A stretch of DNA of 64,000 nt. It comes from a virus. Positions 4,099 through 60,800 of this stretch are shown piece after piece. Position numbers and translations under genes: made by a program. The notes below the pieces were generated by a model that saw only the letters and a list, made by a program, of their open reading frames with translations, was not told where the DNA came from and did not search any database. Where the stretch lies: IMG/VR virus record IMGVR_UViG_3300042879_004946, positions 32,001 through 96,000 of that record; one strand, 5' to 3'. The first letter of the stretch is position 1, and each line of letters opens with the position of its first letter.

Positions 4099-4473
4099 AT
4101 GAAAAATCTTATAAGAAAAATATTAAGGGAAGAGTTTGATGATTTTGATTGGGCAGAAGAATTGGTTGGTAACACCAAACAATTTTCACCCGCTGAAGAA
4201 TTTTTGTATGAAATTATGTCCAATTTAAAGGCGGTTCCTTCGGAAAAAAATCCAGGTTGGATGTTATATAAGGATAAAAGCGGGGTTACTTTAATGGCGG
4301 ATAGTGTGGATAGAGATAAAAAAGATCCTTATTTATGGGTTGATTATGATGAAATTTGGTTAAAATTACGTCAAAAATTTGGTCTTAACAATCAGGAAAC
4401 CAAAGACTTATGCGTGCGTATGCTGGAGATGACCCATAAACGAAAGGTATTGACAGCAGCCTTCATCGGCTAA
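4099..4473 (+). CDS. Array-fused small protein, paralog 1 (124 aa; MKNLIRKILREE leader)
   Basis: Highly similar to the ORFs at 40148 and 49537; C-terminal MLEMTHKRKVLTA is encoded by the 36-nt repeat; ATG at 4099 preferred over 4087. Confidence 0.85.
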   Translation: MKNLIRKILREEFDDFDWAEELVGNTKQFSPAEEFLYEIMSNLKAVPSEKNPGWMLYKDKSGVTLMADSVDRDKKDPYLWVDYDEIWLKLRQKFGLNNQETKDLCVRMLEMTHKRKVLTAAFIG

Positions 4474-4520
4474 ACCCTTCGTACAAAGCTGGAGATGACC
4501 CATAAACGAAAGGTATTGAC
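4422..4520 (+). CRISPR. CRISPR-like mini-array 1: repeat (36) - spacer (30) - truncated repeat (33)
   Basis: GCTGGAGATGACCCATAAACGAAAGGTATTGACAGC at 4422-4457; spacer AGCCTTCATCGGCTAAACCCTTCGTACAAA at 4458-4487; identical 33 nt at 4488-4520. Confidence 0.8.
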
Positions 4521-4536
4521 CTGATATTTATAAAAT

Positions 4537-4881
4537 ATGAAAAATCTTATAAAAAAAATATTAAAAGAAGAAATCGCCACCAGCAAGAGTTTTGAAGACT
4601 TTGCTGAAAAAAGATTTAAAGGTGCGGAAAAAATCACCAATAATGCAAAAGAAAAAGGTGGTCCAGCAATGTTAACCTATCACCATTTTAGAGTTAAATT
4701 ACCTTACTATAAAAAAGCAATGGAAGGTAAATTTGATTTGGAAGAATCAAAAAAAGAATTTAAAAAATATCTAGATGAATTATGTGACTTATCTGAAAAC
4801 GTTGAAATGGGACAAGTAGAATTTCAAAAATTAGTTGGTCTTATAGAAGTTTTAGGTGAACTCATAATCAAACAAAAGTAA
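4537..4881 (+). CDS. Hypothetical protein with MKNLIKKILKEE leader
   Basis: 114-aa ORF; GATATTTAT at 4523-4531. Confidence 0.75.
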   Translation: MKNLIKKILKEEIATSKSFEDFAEKRFKGAEKITNNAKEKGGPAMLTYHHFRVKLPYYKKAMEGKFDLEESKKEFKKYLDELCDLSENVEMGQVEFQKLVGLIEVLGELIIKQK

Positions 4882-40151: not shown

Positions 40152-40525
40152 AAAACCTTATAAGAAAAATATTAAAAGAAGAATTTGATGATTTTGGTTG
40201 GGCTGAAGAATTGATTGGTAATACTAAACAATTTTCCCCCGCTGAAGAGTTCTTATATGAAATCATGTCCAATTTAAAGGCAGTTACTTCGGAAAAAAAT
40301 CCAGGTTGGATGGAGTATAAGGATGAAAGTGGGGTTATTTTAATGGCGGATAATGTGGATAGAAATGAAAAAACCCCCCATTTATGGGTTGATTATGATA
40401 AAATTTGGAGAAAATTAAATCAAAAATTTGGTCTTAACAATCAGGAAGCCAAAGACTTATGCGTGCGTATGCTGGAGATGGTTCATAAACGAAAGGTGTT
40501 GACAGCTGATGTCGGGCAGTGGTGA
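40148..40525 (+). CDS. Array-fused small protein, paralog 2 (125 aa)
   Basis: Very similar to the 4099 ORF; ends MLEMVHKRKVLTA-DVGQW with the stop inside the spacer. Confidence 0.85.
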   Translation: MKNLIRKILKEEFDDFGWAEELIGNTKQFSPAEEFLYEIMSNLKAVTSEKNPGWMEYKDESGVILMADNVDRNEKTPHLWVDYDKIWRKLNQKFGLNNQEAKDLCVRMLEMVHKRKVLTADVGQW

Positions 40526-40572
40526 CGCTTTTTTAGGCTGGAGATGGTTCATAAACGAAAGGTGTTGACAGA
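40471..40572 (+). CRISPR. CRISPR-like mini-array 2: repeat (36) - spacer (30) - repeat (35/36)
   Basis: GCTGGAGATGGTTCATAAACGAAAGGTGTTGACAGC at 40471-40506; spacer TGATGTCGGGCAGTGGTGACGCTTTTTTAG at 40507-40536; repeat at 40537-40572. Confidence 0.8.
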
Positions 40573-40594
40573 TCCAATTATTTAGAGTATAAAT

Positions 40595-40623
40595 AAAAAA
40601 ACCCAGATTAATCTGGGTTTTTT
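40595..40623. terminator. Bidirectional intrinsic terminator
   Basis: A-tract, ACCCAGAT-TA-ATCTGGGT, T-tract, between convergent genes and just after array 2. Confidence 0.8.
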
Positions 40624-40642
40624 CTTTTAATATTAAAAATTT

Positions 40643-44577: not shown

Positions 44578-44684
44578 GGATTAAAGTTAAATGGTTTATT
44601 AATATAAATATAATAATAACGGATTAAAGTTAAATGGTTTATTAATATAAATATAATAATAACGGATTAAATTTAAATGGTTTA
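44578..44684. repeat. 43-bp tandem duplication (two full copies plus a partial)
   Basis: GGATTAAAGTTAAATGGTTTATTAATATAAATATAATAATAAC at 44578 and 44621; partial copy at 44664. Confidence 0.9.
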
Positions 44685-46575: not shown

Positions 46576-48129
46576 TTATTTTTTGTAACCGTATTCCCAA
46601 AGTTTTTTCATGTTTTGTAACTCTGGATGTACAAAAACTGTTTGTTCACTAATTTGAACTGATCCACTAGAAGCAGTTTTATTAAGTTTTTCCTCAACAG
46701 ATTCTTTAATTGTAGGTTTTGAATTAGTAAATTCTTTAACAAGTTGTTTATAGATTGATTGAGATTCTTTTAAAGATTTTGCCTCATCTAATCTTTTTAA
46801 AATTTCTTGTTTTTCCTCTTTTGTTGTACTTTGTTCAGTAAATAATCTAACTGCGTAAGTAAGATTGCTGTTGAAAACTGCTACTTCTTGAAGTTTATTT
46901 CTGAATTGTTTTAATGCGTCAACCATTTTTTCTTGGTTAGCTTTTAATTCTTCATTTTCACTTCTAAGAGTTGAAACAGATTCACTTAGATTTGTGTTTT
47001 CGTTGATGAGTTTGGAGATTTGTGGATTTTTAGATTCACCCATATAAGTTGAATTACCCATTCTTGCTATTGCGTTAGGGTTGGTTCTATTACCTACACG
47101 ATATCTACCTTTTGTAGATTTTGTTCTACTTGCGTAATCTTCATCACTATGCCTCATGTAAGAAGACATTTCATCTTCGTTACCTTTTTTACGAGCCGCT
47201 ATAACATCACCCATAGTAACTTTATTTTTGTCCCCATACATAGAGGCAAGTTCTTGGTTTGTATTATATTTTTTACGTTTCATATACATTGGCATTGACA
47301 TTTTACGTTCATTAGAATTCATATCCATATAGTCTTCATCCATATAGTCTTCATCCATATAGTCTTCATCCATATAGTCTTCATCCATATAGTCTTCATC
47401 CATATAGTCTTCATCCATATAGTCTTCATCCATATAGTCTTCATCCATATAGTCTTCATCAACTACAATTTCATATATAACTTGATTGGATTCACTTAAA
47501 CCTTCTTCCATAGATGACATTTCAACATCACCTACTTCACCGGTTCTAGTATTAAGTTCAATTCTATACTCAGATCCTGACTTATTATCTTTCAAGGTAA
47601 CCATACCATTATCGTTAACAACTTCGATTTCATCTTCTGGTCCCATTTTTTTGAAAACAGAGATTACATCAGCGTCGGAACTATCTGTAAGGTCGACAGT
47701 ATCCATTGGTTCCATCATTCCTACATCTTCGGTTTCGTCACCTAAATCAAGGTCCATATCCATATCTTCCATATCTTCATCTTCTTCAGATTCCATGTCT
47801 TCCATATCAAGATCCATGTCCATGTCCTCGTCATCACCTTCTTCTGCGCCCATGTCTAAATCCAAATCCATTTCTTCTTCACCTTCTTCGGTATCCAAAT
47901 CCATTTCTTCTTCATTGTCATCGTCAGAATCAAGTTCTAAGTCAATTTCCTCCTCTTCATCTTCCTTCAAACCCTTTTTTGAACCTGTAAGAGATTCCTT
48001 TACCATTTCTTCAATTTCTGAACTCATAGTGTGAGCCAGTATTTCTTTTGCGTTTGATTTGAAAGCGGCGTCGATTTTTTCTGCCTCTAGAAGAGCTTCT
48101 TCAATAATTGATTTTTTTTCGTTTGCCAT
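46576..48129 (-). CDS. Prohead core/scaffold protein (gp22 position), very acidic
   Basis: Directly upstream of the capsid gene; Asp/Glu/Met-rich with a coiled coil; many L/I-x-E sites. Confidence 0.75.
   Translation of the reverse strand: MANEKKSIIEEALLEAEKIDAAFKSNAKEILAHTMSSEIEEMVKESLTGSKKGLKEDEEEEIDLELDSDDDNEEEMDLDTEEGEEEMDLDLDMGAEEGDDEDMDMDLDMEDMESEEDEDMEDMDMDLDLGDETEDVGMMEPMDTVDLTDSSDADVISVFKKMGPEDEIEVVNDNGMVTLKDNKSGSEYRIELNTRTGEVGDVEMSSMEEGLSESNQVIYEIVVDEDYMDEDYMDEDYMDEDYMDEDYMDEDYMDEDYMDEDYMDEDYMDMNSNERKMSMPMYMKRKKYNTNQELASMYGDKNKVTMGDVIAARKKGNEDEMSSYMRHSDEDYASRTKSTKGRYRVGNRTNPNAIARMGNSTYMGESKNPQISKLINENTNLSESVSTLRSENEELKANQEKMVDALKQFRNKLQEVAVFNSNLTYAVRLFTEQSTTKEEKQEILKRLDEAKSLKESQSIYKQLVKEFTNSKPTIKESVEEKLNKTASSGSVQISEQTVFVHPELQNMKKLWEYGYKK
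47323..47460. repeat. Perfect 15-bp tandem repeat x9, encoding (EDYMD)9
   Basis: ATCCATATAGTCTTC repeated nine times without mismatch. Confidence 0.95.
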
Positions 48130-48274: not shown

Positions 48275-48751
48275 ATGAAAGCAATAATTAAAAAAATACT
48301 TAGAGAATACGTTGAAAATAATCTTAGAAATGATGATTTTATGCGAAAAATTGATTATGCACAAAAAAAAGCAATAATCGATTCCGAATATCCAACAGAG
48401 ACAAAAGAAATTAAAAAAATAGAAAAAGATATAAAAAATAAAGTAGAAAGGGCCTACAAAGATGTAACGGGTGAAGAACCTGAGAGTGTGGATAACATTG
48501 TTGTTAAAGTTGATGATACAATGCCACCAGAAAAAATTGGTTCATTTAAACATCCTAAAAACAAAAAAGACATCGGATTGATGAAAATTCATCCCGATGC
48601 CTTAAATGACAAAAACTATGTTAAAGATATTTTAAAACATGAGTTGATACATGCGGCTCATGGTTTGGAAGATACCACGGCAAGAAACCATGGGGGTGTT
48701 TTTCAAAAAGTTGCAGATAAAGTTGGATTGCCCAAAAAATATCGTCACTAG
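48275..48751 (+). CDS. SprT-like zinc metalloprotease with KILRE leader
   Basis: HELIH..HGGVF; late motif at 48262. Confidence 0.75.
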   Translation: MKAIIKKILREYVENNLRNDDFMRKIDYAQKKAIIDSEYPTETKEIKKIEKDIKNKVERAYKDVTGEEPESVDNIVVKVDDTMPPEKIGSFKHPKNKKDIGLMKIHPDALNDKNYVKDILKHELIHAAHGLEDTTARNHGGVFQKVADKVGLPKKYRH

Positions 48752-49060: not shown

Positions 49061-49226
49061 GTTGTCAACACCTTTCGTTTATGGGTCATCTCCAGCGCAC
49101 AAGGCCAGGGGGCTCATCGCCCCTTGCTGTAAACACCTTTCGTTTATGGGTCATTTCCAGCGGTAAATTATGCCAGACTTATTGGTGTAAGCTGACAATA
49201 CCTTTCGTTTATGGGTCATTTCCAGC
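49061..49226 (-). CRISPR. CRISPR-like mini-array 3: three 36-nt repeats, two 29-nt spacers
   Basis: Repeats at 49191-49226, 49126-49161 and 49061-49096; spacers (minus strand) TTACACCAATAAGTCTGGCATAATTTACC and AAGGGGCGATGAGCCCCCTGGCCTTGTGC. Confidence 0.85.
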
Positions 49227-49540: not shown

Positions 49541-50080
49541 TTACATATAAGATTTTATTTTATCAGAACCATAAATTTTTATTAATTTTTTAATAACTGA
49601 CGCAGGATTTTTTCTCATATATTCAAGAGCTTGTGGTGGAATGTCTTCACCATATGGGCCAAAAATTGTTTTTAATTCCGATTCCCTTTGATAAGGTTCA
49701 AAACTAGATTTACGATATTTAGTTTCTTTTCTTTCTAGTTCTTTTTTTGGTGTTGCCTCATTTAATATTTTAACTACCAAGTTTTCAATATCGTTTTCGT
49801 TAAGTCTAATTATTTTACTCATTTTATTTTCTTTTAGGTTTTCCATTTTATCTTTTAAAAGTTTGATACGATTTTGTAATAACATTCTTGTACCATAAGT
49901 TGATTTACCACCTGGTGTGGCGTTACCAATCACTTTAATTTGATTTTCTATTTTAGAAATAGCTTTTTGTAAATCTTCTTTAGTTTTTAAACTTTCAACA
50001 TAACCATGACTAAAGTCACTTGGTTGTATCCTACTTTTATCACCTATACGTGATGCTCTAGCCTCGTTAAGTTTTTTCAT
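49541..50080 (-). CDS. Hypothetical protein with an internal leader-like motif
   Basis: Internal IRLNENDIENLVVKILNE matches the N-terminus of the 41062 ORF. Confidence 0.7.
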   Translation of the reverse strand: MKKLNEARASRIGDKSRIQPSDFSHGYVESLKTKEDLQKAISKIENQIKVIGNATPGGKSTYGTRMLLQNRIKLLKDKMENLKENKMSKIIRLNENDIENLVVKILNEATPKKELERKETKYRKSSFEPYQRESELKTIFGPYGEDIPPQALEYMRKNPASVIKKLIKIYGSDKIKSYM

Positions 50081-50868
50081 TTTAAAAATTTATTTAAACT
50101 GTCAATTATTTTTTGACTTCTATTATTTGTAATGTCTGTAAAAGATACTGTCGTAGGTTTAATATCTTCCATTAAATTCCATTGGCAAGTATAACCGTTA
50201 CAACCTTTTAATTGTGATTCAGTAAAAGTTTTTAAATCACCAGAATCGGTTGAAATCCAAGACCCTGGGGTTGATGGTGAGGTTACAATATCCCAACAGA
50301 TTAATTCAAAATCATCTTGAACAACGTTTTTACCATCTTCTTGTTTTAAAGAACCAACACCGCGAGAAGAGATACCAACAGTCCAACCTTTTCTAACCAT
50401 ATTTACTACTTTATCACCAACAGAACTAATAATACCAAGTTTATGATAACCTGGAGTGGTGTCAATTTCCATCTCACCCATCAAAGTCCTACCATCCCAC
50501 CAAGTTTTTGTGATTCTATGTGAAACACGGTCAGCATCGATAACGGAGGCTTCCGGGTGATTTAATTCACCTAAAGAAGTTCCCATTTTAATATATTCTT
50601 GATATCTAATATTTTCTCTTTCTAAAATTTCTTTGGGGTAAATTCTACCGTTTTTGTTTTCCACGCCCCATTTTTGAAGTACGGCATACATGGTGATCAC
50701 CTCTGGTAATGAACCGTCTTTACCGATATTAGTACCCGATTTAAATTCTCTAATTAAATTTTTATTACTAATTCCTTTATACGATAAATCAAGTGAAGCA
50801 TAACCTGCATCATATTCTACAAGTATACCTCTCCCTAATTCTCCTGGTTTTATTATTTTCATAAGCAT
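50077..50868 (-). CDS. gp21: Prohead core protease (T4 gp21-like)
   Basis: NKNGRIYP, GELNHP, GISSRGVGS, WDIVTSPS. Confidence 0.92.
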   Translation of the reverse strand: MLMKIIKPGELGRGILVEYDAGYASLDLSYKGISNKNLIREFKSGTNIGKDGSLPEVITMYAVLQKWGVENKNGRIYPKEILERENIRYQEYIKMGTSLGELNHPEASVIDADRVSHRITKTWWDGRTLMGEMEIDTTPGYHKLGIISSVGDKVVNMVRKGWTVGISSRGVGSLKQEDGKNVVQDDFELICWDIVTSPSTPGSWISTDSGDLKTFTESQLKGCNGYTCQWNLMEDIKPTTVSFTDITNNRSQKIIDSLNKFLK

Positions 50869-53410: not shown

Positions 53411-56400
53411 TTAGGAATTTAATAATAATTCATCATCACCGTTTAAATCTTCATCTTGTTCATCAATTAAACCTTTAATACCTTCAATCATCATCATAAT
53501 GTCTTCATTTTTACTGATACCTTCCATTAGTAATTTATCAATAATGCTTTTATTTTGGTTACGAAATCCCTCACCAAAACCTGTTTCAGTTCCTTGTGTT
53601 TCCCCACCACCTAATTCAGTTTCCCCACCTAATTCAGTTTCCCCACCTAATTCAGCCCCACCGCCGAAACCTCCGCCACCTAATTCAGCCCCACCGCCGA
53701 AACCTCCGCCACCTAATTCAGTTCCGCCACCAAAGCCACCAGCTTCAGCCCCAGTTTCAGTTCCACCGGCCCCAACATCTCCCGCGGCAGCTTCACCGCC
53801 TGTTGGTTTAATTTCACCATATATTTTATCAACACGAGTGAATAATCCACTATTTTTAATAACTTCAGCCGTACCTTCAAGTTCTTTAGTTGCGGCACGT
53901 TCCAATCTTTGACGTTCATCATCAACTTTAATTTCTTCGTCCGTCCAGTGGAAAATGTTTTTCTTTGCCCACATATGTGATGTTGGAGCAAAACCAGAAT
54001 CAATTTGTGAAACTAAGTCCTTGTATAGGGTAACTTTTTCCTTCCATTGTTCAATCTTTAACATTTCACCCTGTGTTGATGGGTTTGTAAGGTTTAAAGA
54101 AAAATTATTTAAATCATCTGTTAACCCTAAAATATACAAATGTATGATTGCAATTTTATTCAATTCCTGAATCATTGATTGTTGGATTTTATTAATAGTT
54201 CTGGCAAAACGAATGTCTAGCAAAGAAAGCGTCTTACCTTCGCCAACGGCTTCTTCAAAACCTAAAAAGGCTTTTGGTACCCTAAGAGCTGTTAATAATT
54301 TTTTCTGAATATACTCAATATCAGCAATATCACCCAAATTAGAGGCACCTGCCAAAGTATCTATTGGGTTTGGTGCGTTAGGGTCACGAACCGGAACAAA
54401 ATAATCTTGGTCAACCGCTAAAGTATTGTAGCGTAAATCTACTTGCCCTGTTTTTTGGTCAACCAATTGTTGTCTTTTAAATTTATTTGCAACTTTTTGT
54501 ACATATGCATCAACATCTTTATCATCTATATTACCAACATAAATTTTAAAAACACGTCTTTCTGGTGCTCTAACAACGCGATAAACTAACATCGCATCTT
54601 CGGATAACAAAAGTTGTTTCCAAATACGTCTTGCTTTTTCTAACATTGATGTTCCATAAGGTAAACGTCTATCATCACCCAATAAACGGAAATGAGCAAC
54701 CTCCCACGGGTTAAAATCCATTGCCTTTTCACGCCAACGAAATGTAACCTGTTTTGATTTATTCGGCTCTTGGTTTAAATTACCTTCGGGTTTTGTCGGG
54801 AACAAACCTTCTTCTTTTCTCTCAATTTCAATATTGGTTAATTGTGATGAACCAATAATTCCTTTTTTGTTATCTATTTTTAAAAAAACGAAATTATCAC
54901 CATATTTACAGTTGGACAAAAACACCCCAGAATCCCTTGAAAACAAACCATTTACATCCTTACCTAACACTGGAAAGTTATGTCTATCATGTTCTCCATT
55001 AGGCCCAACAGCTTCTAAACAATAGACATCCGATGTTTCATTTAATTTAACAACAGAAACAACTTTATGGTTTAATAAAGCTTTTTCTGTTGTTTTACCT
55101 AAATAAATTGATTTAGCTTTTATGTAATTTTTATCTAAAATGAGACTTGATTTAATTGACAACACAAAATCAAAATAATTCTGATTTGTTTTTCTATAAA
55201 TAACCTTATTTAATGTTGTCGGGTTTATCGACTTAGTAATGTCTTTTTTTAATGTGTAATTTTGATTAAATAACTCAATGAATTCAGGATCGTATTTAAG
55301 TAATTCAGATAATTTATTAATACCGACATAATTTTCAGAATTTTTTATAATATTTGAAATATATGTTAAGCATTCATCAGTTATAGTTATAGTCATACCT
55401 TTTTTGGTTTTCTCTATGAACTTATCTGAAGACCAATTGGCTAACATTTTTTTAACACGAATTTGATTGTGTTCTGAGTGTAAATCACTATGGTTATATT
55501 GTTCAAAATATTTAGGATAAATACCAGACATTTCTTTAGATAAACGTTCTTTTCGTTTATCTGACCTTAAATATTTATCAATACCTTCCATTCTTTTTTT
55601 AACAACTTCAGGAGACCCTAGTGTTTTATCAAAATGTTCTACATGTAGTTTAAAATGGTCTGAATGTGTTAGTCTAATTAAATTATTAGGATTGTTATTT
55701 AATTTATTGAAATCATTGTGATGTGTGTCAAACTGACCTCCAATAGATTTTTCATATTCTAAATCCCTAACACACTCATGAGCAACTAAAGAATGTGTAA
55801 ATTTATATTTACTAGAATTAGGGTTATACACTTTTTCATATCCCACAATGCGGTCTTTTTTCTTCTCACTTTTTCTAGTATAAAAAGGCATTAAGGATTG
55901 GCCAGATGTTAATTCATCGGCTCTTTTATAAGAACCGTCTCTAAGCATGTATTCATGGTCTGGTGTCGTATCAATATGTGTTCCATCGTCTAAGGTAACT
56001 CTTACTAATTCACTATTTTTTCTAGTTAGGTCACACCATATTATTTTACTAGGGACAATAGCCTTTGTACCGTCTTGAATAGCGTACGACCATATTTCTT
56101 CACCAGATTTAACTCTATTTGAGAGTTCTTTAATAGTAATTTCGGTACCATCTAACAATGGTATCATACTATTATCCCTAATAGGTGTGTTTCTAGTCCA
56201 CATAGGTAAATTTGTTTGAATATCTAAAATATTGTAAAACAAATCTTGTAACACACTTTTAACTCTTTTAGAGTCAGAATGTATGGTTAAAATATAACCT
56301 TGTTCACTTGGGGTTGTTGCCTCTTCGGAGTAAATATCTAATGCAGCGGAGATTTCCGGAGTATTATGTGAAAATATTGTATCTGTTGCAAAGTTTTTAT

Positions 56401-57877: not shown

Positions 57878-60800
57878 TCAGCCACCTAATATTGATTTAT
57901 TTTTATCTTTATCTTTAAAACCAGGCATCCCAAAGAAAACCCAGTTATGTTCGGTTCTGGGTGCTTGAATATGCCTAGAAGTATCTTTATATGCTGGACT
58001 ATTACTAACCATTTCTGGTATTGATTGTACTTCATTACTAGAAACAACCCAAGAATCTAACATTGCTTTTGCTTGGCCTTTACTTTTTTCAAAATCTTTA
58101 AAAGAAGTTTGACTAACATAACAACACATTGCTATTGCCATTAAGCAATCGTCATGATAACCTTTCATGTGATCAGGTCTGCCATTTTTAAAAATAAAAG
58201 TATCCATTTCAGTAACAGACCTAATAGACCTCACTTTAAAAGAGTTCATCCTAATGGATTCTTCTAACTTGGTAATGATGGTATTTCTGTTTTTTTGGAA
58301 ATTAAGGCCAGGTAATTTACCATCATTCATAAATTTTTCTAATTTTTTATTGTTATTGACAGCATCAATACCAATAACGGTATCATAATACATCTTTTTA
58401 GATGAATACCCAAGTTCAATCATTTTTAGAACCGTTGATACGCCATAACCACCAGTAATATCAACAACAGTAAAGGCTTCATATCGATTACCGTATTCAA
58501 CAGCAATCTCACCTAACGTATCTGGAGCGACTTTACCGTGGTATTCTGCAACTTGATTACCTGTTGTAAAATCATATATACAAATACAAGCGGAATCTTC
58601 GGCGGAACCTGAAGCTGCGTCTGCGGATAAAATGTATTCATGTCCTAGTTGAGGATCTTCCCAAATCCACATATTACCATCCAACCATTCGGTTCTAATA
58701 GGGTCTATAACATTATTTTTTCTGTGATATTCTATGTACTTACTATCGATAACATTATCACCGGAACCGTTAAAAGCACATAACAACTCTTGAGAGATCG
58801 TTCTAGGATTGTTATTTAACTGACCACACATCATTTCAAACCAAGGGGCTGTTGGGACCCAACCTTCTGTTTCTAATTGGTCGAAATGTTCATATTCCAT
58901 ATCAATTTTTTCCTCAATAACATCACCAGCCTCATTCTTTTTTTGCCATTTCATGCCTACATTATAACGTGGATCTTGAAACCATCGCATCTCTACAATG
59001 TTAAAAGGATTGTTAGTTTTTTCTTTGGTTTTTGCTGAAACGTATGTTTTATAATAAAGGGCGTCCATTCCGTTTGGTGTTTGGTGACCTAACATGCCAT
59101 TATATAAAACACTATGACACCATATATCTTCTTCATTATTTGGTAATGAAAAATCATAAGTATAATTTTTACTATCGACAATATCTTTTATCGGTACCCA
59201 AACAATATTTTCATCTACGTTATTATATTTTTCATTTATAATATCTAAATAACTCAACAATAAACCACGACTAACATGATTAACTTTACTATTTTTTCTA
59301 GTTATATGTGATATCTTACAATTTTTGTCCGAAAAATATTTTAAACCTAAATCACTGTTACCATAAGTGGTACGAATTATATCACCACCCATAGGTACAA
59401 CATCATATGGTTCATTAACTTTATGTTTAACTAAATTATATTTTTTAATATTTTTACGTTCCAAACCAAACCCAATTAAATCATAATATAGTTTAGAGTT
59501 TTTACTGTTCATATGTAATCTATAGTTCATAGATTCCACTTTAACCAATTTAGTTACAGGTGTCAATTTTTCTTGATACTCACATAGTATACCGATGTTC
59601 ATAAATAACACCCTAAATTGTTCGATAAGTCTTTTAGATGAAGAACATAAACCAACATTACCGTTATCACTTCTACTGTAACCATTACCATCCATAAAAC
59701 CACGTATAAAGTGTATAACATTATCTTTAGATAATGAGAATATACGTTTAGGTATTACTTTATTTTTAGCCTTTAAAGATAGATCAAAACCAATGTATTC
59801 TAAAAACTCACCCAATTCTTTTGATGACGTTGTATAATGAAATTTACCGTCATAACCATATTTTAAGTTTAAATCCCTAAAAATTTGTGAGATATCGTCA
59901 CCACAACTAATAGTTATGGATGTACCGACATGTTTACCCTTTTTGATAGATTTGTAGACACTACCTTTGGATAAAAATAAACCCATAAAATAACTAATAT
60001 CTTTTGTTATTTTATTTGGGTTAAACTTATTTTTGTTTCTACTATTTTTTTTTGGTATAAAATCAGTACAATCATCGTCATTACCCCACATATTTTGATT
60101 ATACAATACAGATACATAATCCCCTACCGATAAGTCATTTAATTTATACCAACCAAAACTATTATCTTTTTGTGAGTAGGCATATAATTTATGGTTTAAA
60201 CTACCCTCTAAATTAGTAATCTTTGTTTTTATAATTTTAGTGTCAACGTAACCGTTGTTAAACATGATATTAGAGTGTCTAACACCACCATAACCCATAA
60301 CACCATAGTTATTTATAACATAACCACCATCTTTAGTGTCATCAATAAATTCTGAAACCTCTTTTATACCTTTATCAGTAAAAACAAATGTATCTTTTGT
60401 TACACATGAAATTAATATCGCCCTACCACCAGTAGAAAGTGCGGGTTGTGCTGCCGCATAAACTTCTTCACCACCTTCAATATATGCCGCCTCATCCATG
60501 ACTAACAATGTTGGTGTATAACCACGTAATGCATCTAAAGAAGTTGCAACCGCTTTAACTTCAGAACCATTAGTTAATCTATAGTGTTTTGCTGAATTTT
60601 TTTCTGGGTCAAACCAGGAATCACCACCACTCCAAACGTTCATCCAATTTGGTAGTTGTGCAGTAAAATCTTTTACTTTTTTTAAAAATTCAATTGCTGT
60701 TTCTTGTTTATTTGCCAAAATCAAAACCCTTTGTGGGTTATTTGGATCAGCAAATGCGGTTATAACCGCTATGTAAGCGGCCGTAGTTGTTGAAACCCCC

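Follow-up and report, generated by a model that had tools for sequence, protein, structure and literature searches.

Short CRISPR-type arrays at the 3′ ends of a multi-copy phage gene and their partial likeness to a Cas13b-adjacent array of a Bacteroidota lineage

Repeat–spacer units at the ends of a phage gene family

A small phage protein of about 125 amino acids (aa) is encoded by a family of genes which run, at their 3′ ends, into short arrays of repeats and spacers. The window analysed here is a stretch of 64,000 nucleotides (nt), i.e., bases 32001–96000 of the 108,457-bp IMG/VR virus record IMGVR_UViG_3300042879_004946 (G000; 33% complete according to CheckV). A first-pass annotation of the window had described three paralogous genes ending in repeat–spacer units, and this was borne out (Table 1). 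Each group of repeats starts within the 3′ end of a paralogous open reading frame (ORF) of 124–128 aa, and a degenerate 36-nt pattern matches the window seven times (plus strand: 4422, 4488, 40471 and 40537; minus strand: 49226, 49161 and 49096), compared with no match in 100 shuffles. The window spacers are 30, 30, 29 and 29 nt long. Two further loci lie upstream of the window on the minus strand of the record (2329–1905 and 1891–1335), with one and three spacers, respectively, and the whole record has five copies of the gene, an array on every one of them, and eight spacers of 29–30 nt.

The first repeat is in frame and supplies the codons for the final 12 conserved residues (...HKRKVLT plus one more codon), and the spacer after it provides a short random protein tail and usually also the stop codon. 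In every locus, the 3′ end of the terminal repeat is degenerate and leads, in the frame of the gene, to a stop codon, either immediately or within a few codons: at locus 1 it reads ACC TGA (4519–4524, the TGA at 4522–4524), and at locus 2 the stop (TAG, 40583–40585) comes four codons later. In eight records, 16 of 17 terminal repeats are without the usual CAGC end, seven of these having CCTG. Judged by its sequence, the degenerate terminal repeat reads as the former end of the gene with its stop codon, and the simplest history would be that the gene once ended in a single repeat, upstream of which units of repeat plus spacer were inserted. Duplication of 36 bp around an insert of 30 bp is the signature of Cas1–Cas2 integration, and we know of no transposon or slippage process that yields it.

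A scan of IMG/VR DNA found the repeat in 12 stretches from seven contigs, four of which were taken whole for analysis. The phage records are all fragments (9–51% complete according to CheckV) of a genome estimated at 240–330 kb. The eight records hold 23 loci, with 36-nt repeats (one to five per locus) and 31 unique spacers of 28–32 nt, 24 of them exactly 30 nt long. Three generic features of CRISPR arrays are present, namely repeats of fixed length with spacers of near-constant length, polarised gain with a degenerate far repeat, and spacers from foreign DNA, and these support the view that the units are of the CRISPR type and not ordinary duplications of a 3′ end. Among the roles proposed for the cassettes in the first-pass annotation, that in which the 3′ end of the gene is an integration site for Cas1–Cas2 fits this anatomy best. 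The tie between array and gene family that had been noted in the window extends to the eight records, where 24 of the 25 full-length gene copies found by tblastn end in the repeat. The only copy without it (G001:82936–83274, equivalent to L031:2936–3274) is a diverged paralog with 56% identity, which lies directly after the array of another paralog.

Units are added on the gene side, i.e., the gain is polarised. An old spacer of G000 (record 1941–1970) is also present in the phage record G001, where two further units stand on its gene side, and in L011 and L018 one new unit stands before a spacer that is common to L009, L012 and L020. The arrays also turn over. The 1.5-kb flanks of the record G002 are 98.7–99.8% identical to those of G000, yet the G002 orthologs of window loci 1 and 2 have two and three spacers, none of which is shared with G000 (one and one); spacer turnover is therefore much faster than point mutation. 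A more distant ortholog of locus 2 has one repeat and no spacer, and single-repeat alleles are found in L009/L012 and in L018, all inside the ORF. Had the units been ordinary duplications, relatives would have been expected to lack repeats and to share invariant spacers; this was checked and did not occur, as relatives carry the repeats and spacers differ between near-identical strains. The first ten bases of the locus 1 spacer (4458–4467) agree at eight of ten positions with the second spacer of the orthologous G002 array (L034:11989–11998), the remainder being unrelated; this may be chance.

The mean GC content of the spacers is 43% (range 30–69%), compared with 30% in the phage; in approximately 340 kb of phage DNA from five related records, no match to any of the 31 spacers was found. 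The locus 2 spacer has a 30/30 match in 17 metagenome contigs. Its protospacer lies, in the sense orientation, inside a gene for a 571-aa SBBP beta-propeller protein with a T9SS sorting tail; the neighbouring genes are ordinary chromosomal ones, and the source of this spacer is thus a Bacteroidota chromosome. On one of these contigs, the adjoining Band 7 protein is 90% identical to one in genome G105, and the window arrays were searched by BLAST against 301 genomes of the family of G105 as well as against 81 relatives of G105 (the two samples share some genomes). The gene-proximal spacer of locus 3 matches at 26/29 positions, antisense, the mazG gene of two genomes of this putative host family, at the same site of orthologous genes. 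The locus 1 spacer matches at 25/30 positions (21 contiguous), in the sense orientation, a crtI-type phytoene desaturase gene of G931, a genome of the family, and 8 of 10 codons give the same residue in the alignment as read by eye. For each of these near matches, the count expected by chance is about 0.05 per search. Taken together, the matches indicate that three of the four window spacers have their source in ordinary genes on the chromosomes of a single Bacteroidota family.

The other searches for spacer sources were negative. The distal spacer of locus 3 (69% GC) has no match, nor do the three spacers of the upstream array in the 301 family genomes. The locus 1 spacer has no exact match in metagenome contigs, and the cores of this spacer and of both locus 3 spacers have none in the viral contigs of IMG/VR. 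Among the 81 relatives of G105, the locus 2 spacer is not matched at up to three mismatches, the host species itself seemingly being outside the collection, and five spacers of G001 gave only chance-level matches, outside the spacers. All spacers, searched by BLAST against 164 kb of non-phage loci (mostly host-like metagenome contigs), gave only short chance matches. The traced targets have no common theme, and two are matched in sense and one in antisense; with this mixed orientation and random choice of genes, capture as a by-product is a better fit than purposeful targeting. The lack of self-derived spacers may reflect either activity of the guides made from the arrays or a low suitability of phage DNA as a substrate for capture.

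Constraint on the repeat and its partial likeness to Cas13b arrays

The repeat has a GC content of 47%, compared with 33% for the gene body, and uses codons that are rare in the phage ORFs: CTG (0.8% of leucine codons), CGA (4.5% of arginine codons) and AAG (9.6% of lysine codons), to which can be added the uncommon ACC, GAG and TTG (13–17% each). The rare codons are fixed in 32–33 of the 33 non-terminal repeats, which implies a constraint at the nucleotide level. The four codons just 5′ of the repeat (TGC, GTG, CGT and GAC) are likewise rare, and the pattern points to selection acting on the nucleotide sequence of both the repeat and the adjoining "leader".

The minimum-free-energy fold predicted for the main variant of the repeat (−8.6 kcal/mol, z −3.0) has a terminal stem of 4 bp and a short inner one. 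The ends are GCUG...CAGC in 21 of the 33 non-terminal repeats and GUUG...CAAC in one. For four of five phage loci, fold prediction has the first repeat forming its structure independently of the 43 nt upstream of it. A test for a leader–repeat hairpin did not separate phage from host, neither of which has such a hairpin within 43 nt upstream.

Type VI-B arrays have a 36-nt repeat with complementary GUUG/CAAC ends and a poly-U loop, 30-nt spacers, and a crRNA (CRISPR RNA) whose spacer is followed by the repeat on its 3′ side (10.1101/092577). The repeat of Cas13bt3 also has 36 nt, with a 4-bp stem (G1–C36 to G4–C33), internal loops and a G10–U27 wobble (PMC7613696). The phage repeat has this full plan, with a weaker inner stem and an A-rich loop. 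The first-pass suggestion of a repeat of the Bacteroidota type VI-B kind can be upheld and narrowed to the compact Cas13bt kind with GCUG...CAGC ends, in the looser sense of a Cas13b(t)-like repeat: its loop is not poly-U, and no identical host repeat was found.

A similar array exists in the lineage of the putative host. Genome G468, which is related to the genome with the best match to the protospacer contig, is the only one of the 81 relatives of G105 with at least three 36-nt repeats bounded by GYTG...CARC, and the only one with the GCTG...CAGC form in a sample of 401 genomes of the order. Its array comprises eight repeats with GCUG...CAGC ends and a U-rich loop, and spacers of 29–30 nt. 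An ungapped alignment of the G468 and phage repeats has 23–24 identities in 36 positions; these take in the initial six to eight bases and the final five to seven, according to the phage variant used. With a covariance model built from the G468 repeats, phage repeats took the top three places in 134 kb (E 0.3–0.9), and two more were among the twelve matches listed.

The start of the G468 array lies within an ORF, at its 3′ end; this ORF is cut by the contig end and has an RNxxxH motif. The only homolog of this ORF among 1.8 billion representatives is an 830-aa protein, P0121 (E 3e-4), which itself matches Cas13bt3 in the PDB (E 2e-10) and the NCBIfam model of Cas13b, NF038190 (E 6e-11); the ORF also matches the C-terminus of Cas13bt3 weakly but in register. 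The ORF that abuts the array is thereby a putative gene for a compact, Cas13bt-like Cas13b, an identity that rests on one transitive homolog and the weak direct matches to Cas13bt3. The fragment was not recognised directly by NCBIfam, PADLOC or the protein atlas, and a word-based search for longer relatives of it found none. The reading frame of this cas13b (L064:3–514, G468:C7) comes to its end within repeat 1 of the array that it adjoins, and its register relative to the repeat matches that of the phage gene, so that the "leader" of the host array is also coding sequence in this lineage. Two of the eight G468 repeats (L064:677–777) have a different inner stem-loop with four changed middle positions, i.e., there are two variants in one array. 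On another contig, G468 also has cas9, type II cas1 and cas2; downstream of this cas2 (L067:5694–6223, G468:C82) are at least five copies of a 47-nt unit with palindromic ends, in pairs 51 nt apart, which is not normal array spacing. BLAST searches with the phage arrays gave no array match in the 81 relatives of G105 or the 301 family genomes.

In the phage, the absence of cas genes noted in the window holds for cas1, cas2, cas9 and cas13b in about 341 kb from five fragmentary phage records. The sole match in the cas search was a small HNH ORF in G001 (59925–60248; 173 aa), whose similarity to the Cas9 model is confined to the HNH part and, at 29 bits, lies below the Cas9 cut-off; it is most likely a homing-type HNH endonuclease and not Cas9.

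The protein product and the neighbourhood of the arrays

A protein search yielded 139 homologs of 98–218 aa, all metagenomic and none with a Pfam domain. Beyond the conserved C-terminal motif, nearly all have an unrelated tail (between 2 and about 60 residues in members of the family), and about one-fifth run on through a second or third in-frame copy of the motif. The AlphaFold model (pLDDT 71) comprises three helices, a four-stranded sheet and two helices. The idea that the protein is a new RNA-guided effector found no support: it belongs to no Pfam or PHROG family, has no Foldseek match in the PDB and no match in the protein atlas, and lacks homology to the C-terminus of Cas13b. Its best VIA-align Z score is 4.8, among mixed and mostly winged-helix-like small domains, which is too weak to name a fold. 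The phage gene was also considered as a captured 3′ end of cas13b, and this was rejected (hhalign probability 0.5%).

The N-terminal leader of the protein, which the first-pass annotation had taken for a putative head-packaging signal, is real in the sense that it is not confined to the paralogs. Nine ORFs of the record start with 12 near-identical residues (at least 7/12 identical), and four of these encode proteins that are unrelated to the paralogs, including a SprT-like metalloprotease (48275–48751). The common start looks like a shared targeting or pro-peptide module. In phage T4, short N-terminal targeting peptides that are cleaved after L-x-E send internal proteins into the capsid, some of them anti-defence factors. 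By analogy, it is plausible that the leader of the approximately 125-aa protein is a head-packaging signal.

The claim that each cassette abuts a late gene is right only in part: locus 3 is two genes from the head maturation protease gene, and locus 1 lies between genes of no known function and a DNA polymerase gene. The hairpin and T-run after array 2 look like a terminator, which would put array 2 within the transcript of its gene. Elsewhere in the window, a perfect 15-nt tandem repeat (9.2 copies, 47323–47460) lies inside a very acidic 517-aa ORF (46576–48129, minus strand), probably for a scaffold-like head protein. There is also a 43-nt tandem repeat (2.5 copies, 98% matches) at 44578–44684, and nested 18/33-nt tandem repeats are found at 53598–53731. 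Rfam gave no match at gathering scores over the whole window, and none at E up to 10 on locus 3.

Table 1. Coordinates of the array loci and of associated genes (positions in the window unless given as positions in the record)
Feature	Position	Strand	Basis or remark
Paralog 1, 124 aa	4099..4473	+	ORF list, sequence, family alignment; tail and stop codon in spacer
Locus 1, repeat 1, 36 nt, in frame in gene	4422..4457	+	Pattern, 0 mismatches
Locus 1, spacer, 30 nt, 47% GC	4458..4487	+	
Locus 1, terminal repeat, last 3 bases degenerate	4488..4524	+	Gene frame ends ...KVLT then TGA
Gene of 114 aa, unrelated to paralogs, directly after array 1	4537..4881	+	Same 12-aa N-terminal leader
Paralog 2, 125 aa	40148..40525	+	
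Locus 2, array	40471..40572	+	Repeat, 30-nt spacer 40507–40536, terminal repeat
Hairpin and T-run directly after array 2	40600..40625	+	Read from sequence by eye
Paralog 3, 128 aa	49151..49537	−	
Locus 3, array	49061..49226	−	Repeats 49226–49191, 49161–49126, 49096–49061; 29-nt spacers 49190–49162, 49125–49097
Head maturation protease	50077..50868	−	phrog_207, E 2.4e-40; two genes upstream of paralog 3, same strand
ORFs with 12-residue leader	window 4099, 4537, 40148, 42843(−), 48275, 49537(−); record 311(−), 1891(−), 2329(−)		

A possible mechanism, its rivals and known systems

The reading that we hold to be the most probable, though at slightly less than an even chance, is that the Cas1–Cas2 of the host writes into a Cas13b-type repeat which is kept by the phage and which probably serves as a decoy RNA. 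Each paralog would end, in its last 36 bases, in a genuine CRISPR repeat belonging to the compact Cas13b kind (type VI-B/Bt), preserved by the phage at the nucleotide level. The setting would be infection of a Bacteroidota host that has both a type II-C cas9–cas1–cas2 module and a Cas13b(t) effector. There, the host Cas1–Cas2 would take the 3′ end of the gene for a leader–repeat junction; about 30 bp of the available DNA, mostly fragments of the degrading host chromosome, would be inserted, and the repeat would be duplicated. The result would be short, fast-turnover arrays behind the gene, kept short by recombination between repeats. The transcripts of the many gene copies (five to ten per genome) would then carry a free Cas13b-type hairpin, which would load the host Cas13b with harmless guides and dilute the anti-phage guides of the host. 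This would be an RNA anti-CRISPR of the "extraneous crRNA" type, the spacers being largely a by-product. The integrating enzyme, the binding of the RNA by Cas13b and the decoy role are what we infer here, from direct observations on the arrays (anatomy, polarity, turnover and foreign spacers), on the repeat (nucleotide constraint and likeness to the Cas13b-adjacent host array) and on the phage DNA at hand (no cas genes).

Several of these steps have precedents. In Flavobacterium columnare, a VI-B array without its own cas1 and cas2 is filled in trans by the II-C Cas1–Cas2, the newest spacer being next to the leader, and self spacers are about as frequent in its VI-B arrays as phage spacers (PMC8092290). 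The leader and first repeat of VI-B arrays can yield an "extraneous" crRNA, which hosts suppress with a leader–repeat hairpin; over-expressed RNA of the first repeat sequesters Cas13b and raises plaque counts about 1000-fold (PMC13187072).

A number of points weigh against this reading. The host repeat nearest to the phage repeat is only 64–67% identical to it, the phage loop is A-rich on the gene strand and not poly-U as described for VI-B, and the covariance model scores of the phage repeats are weak (15–9 bits, E 0.3–8). Base-pair covariation across 25 variants of the repeat is not above that in shuffles. An array built of the phage's own repeat was found in none of the genomes searched, and a scan of 185,579 species genomes with the repeat core gave six single matches and no array, which is the level estimated for chance with an 18-base pattern. 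Two of the three protospacer links are near and not exact, each at a chance of about 0.05 per search. That the repeat RNA is processed or bound is a proposal from sequence. In vitro, Cas13bt3 leaves its own pre-crRNA unprocessed (PMC7613696), so that a different nuclease would be needed to set the decoy free. Why the repeat sits in this particular protein gene is also left unexplained by the decoy idea. Finally, the fragmentary state of all the phage records (9–51% complete) leaves room for a phage-borne cas gene.

A broader version is possible, though we hold it to be distinctly less probable than the decoy reading. Here, the end of the multi-copy gene, whose product would probably travel inside the capsid, would be a landing pad for host adaptation enzymes and the phage genome would keep a record of host DNA, while the mRNAs would double as Cas13b-type guides or decoys, giving a counter-defence that combines protein and RNA. 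This would be the first virus-borne repeat of type VI, and the captured guides might reprogram the host Cas13b.

The captured spacers could have a more active part, with the arrays as working guide cassettes that use the host Cas13b(t) against host transcripts, or against rival phages and mobile elements. Such a role would fit the maintenance of arrays in nearly all gene copies and their quick renewal, and viral mini-arrays that act through host Cas proteins are known (PMC11656645). The mazG spacer, being antisense, could guide Cas13b to that mRNA, and the absence of matches to the phage itself (0/31) is as expected if active self-targeting guides were selected against. However, the other two traced spacers are sense and, transcribed with the phage gene, would not pair with the host mRNA, and their targets (a secreted beta-propeller protein and crtI) share no theme with mazG. 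The three window spacers scanned against IMG/VR had no match there and 0/31 match related phages, so that rival viruses are not an evident target; moreover, activation of Cas13b leads to collateral RNA cleavage and dormancy (10.1101/092577), which would be harmful to a lytic phage. On balance, this role seems unlikely. Less probable again is a self-contained phage system, in which the unsampled part of the 240–330-kb genome would encode its own compact effector and perhaps adaptation genes, with the five arrays in the service of that system. Huge phages do carry compact CRISPR-Cas systems, often without cas1 and cas2 (PMC7162821, PMC11656645), and the incompleteness of the records would allow for one; against it stand the lack of any cas1-, cas2-, cas9- or cas13b-like gene in the 341 kb, and the scattering of the arrays beside structural and replication genes, with no large ORF of unassigned function common to all loci.

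The arrays might also serve the protein, the capture of spacers giving new C-terminal tails and the RNA having no role of its own. One repeat plus a 30-nt spacer is 66 nt, i.e., 22 codons, which keeps the frame, and the tails vary widely in length, some of them passing through two or three repeats. This explanation is nevertheless very improbable: of the 24 unique 30-nt spacers, 14 contain an in-frame stop, compared with 11.0 ± 2.4 in shuffles (P 0.14), and stops in the other two forward frames are found in 5 and 11 spacers; with counts so near to those of the shuffles, there is no selection for or against open tails. Furthermore, 7 of the 31 spacers differ from 30 nt in length and disrupt the frame, and the fixed rare codons indicate a constraint on nucleic acid, not on protein. 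An enrichment of stop codons in the spacers, hinted at by the five loci of the record, vanished in the larger set. Hardly credible at all is an origin without CRISPR, by slippage or unequal recombination among the 3′ ends of the paralogs. Many paralogs with the same 3′ end are good substrates for recombination, and arrays probably do collapse in this way, but such a process cannot make unique inserts of 30 ± 2 nt with foreign composition, one of them identical to part of a bacterial chromosomal gene, and the strict 36-nt duplication with one-sided gain would not be explained.

If the decoy reading is true, a virus genome is written into by CRISPR adaptation in nature, at a high rate and mainly from host DNA. 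The arrays of each phage would amount to a dated record of the hosts it had lately infected, and would be a direct tool for linking uncultured phages to hosts. Type VI would join the systems that are mimicked by phage repeat RNAs, a case which surveys that mask ORFs would have missed. The conserved and translated repeat would be under joint constraint as protein, as RNA and as integration site, and would offer a compact natural model of what Cas1–Cas2 and Cas13b(t) need in a repeat.

The phage arrays are like the VI-B and VI-Bt arrays of Bacteroidota (those of Cas13b and Cas13bt/Cas13X) in their 36-nt repeat, spacers of about 30 nt and 4-nt complementary ends that form a terminal stem, and also in their leader-side gain, degenerate last repeat and tolerance of self (chromosomal) spacers. 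With the VI-Bt example in the host lineage, that of G468, they share the GCUG...CAGC ends and a reading frame that runs into repeat 1. Unlike these arrays, they are found at five or more scattered loci without cas13b beside them, their "leader" is the coding 3′ end of a small gene family and their repeat is translated; in addition, the loop is A-rich instead of poly-U, and the arrays are very short (0–4 spacers).

Among viral elements, mini-arrays (PMC11656645) are similarly short, with one or few spacers, and occur in viral genomes without cas genes, where they are thought to use host Cas proteins. However, they have repeats identical to those of the host, spacers mostly against related viruses and an intergenic position, whereas for the phage arrays a host repeat identical to theirs was not found, the spacers that could be traced are of host chromosomal origin, and the first repeat is inside a conserved multi-copy protein gene. 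The 2024 review of mini-arrays, which also covers solitary repeat units that work as RNA anti-CRISPRs, has no type VI case and mentions type VI only as absent from plasmids (PMC11656645). The compact CRISPR arrays of huge phages (PMC7162821) share with the present arrays a large phage genome, short arrays and missing adaptation genes; they differ in that they sit in cas loci with a phage effector, no gene fusion having been described, whereas no effector was found here. The literature searched holds no account of a repeat in a conserved phage protein gene, of a type VI-like viral array, or of phage arrays filled from the host chromosome.

Closest to the proposed decoy are the solitary repeat units known as Racrs (PMC10651486) and the extraneous crRNA that sequesters Cas13b (PMC13187072), in both of which a repeat-like RNA can occupy an effector with a useless guide, and in which additional copies would raise the dose. 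The Racr survey, in which ORFs were masked before the search, reported repeat units for all types except type VI (PMC10651486). Unlike Racrs, which are solitary and non-coding, the phage repeat lies inside an ORF and would, in addition, be an active site of integration.

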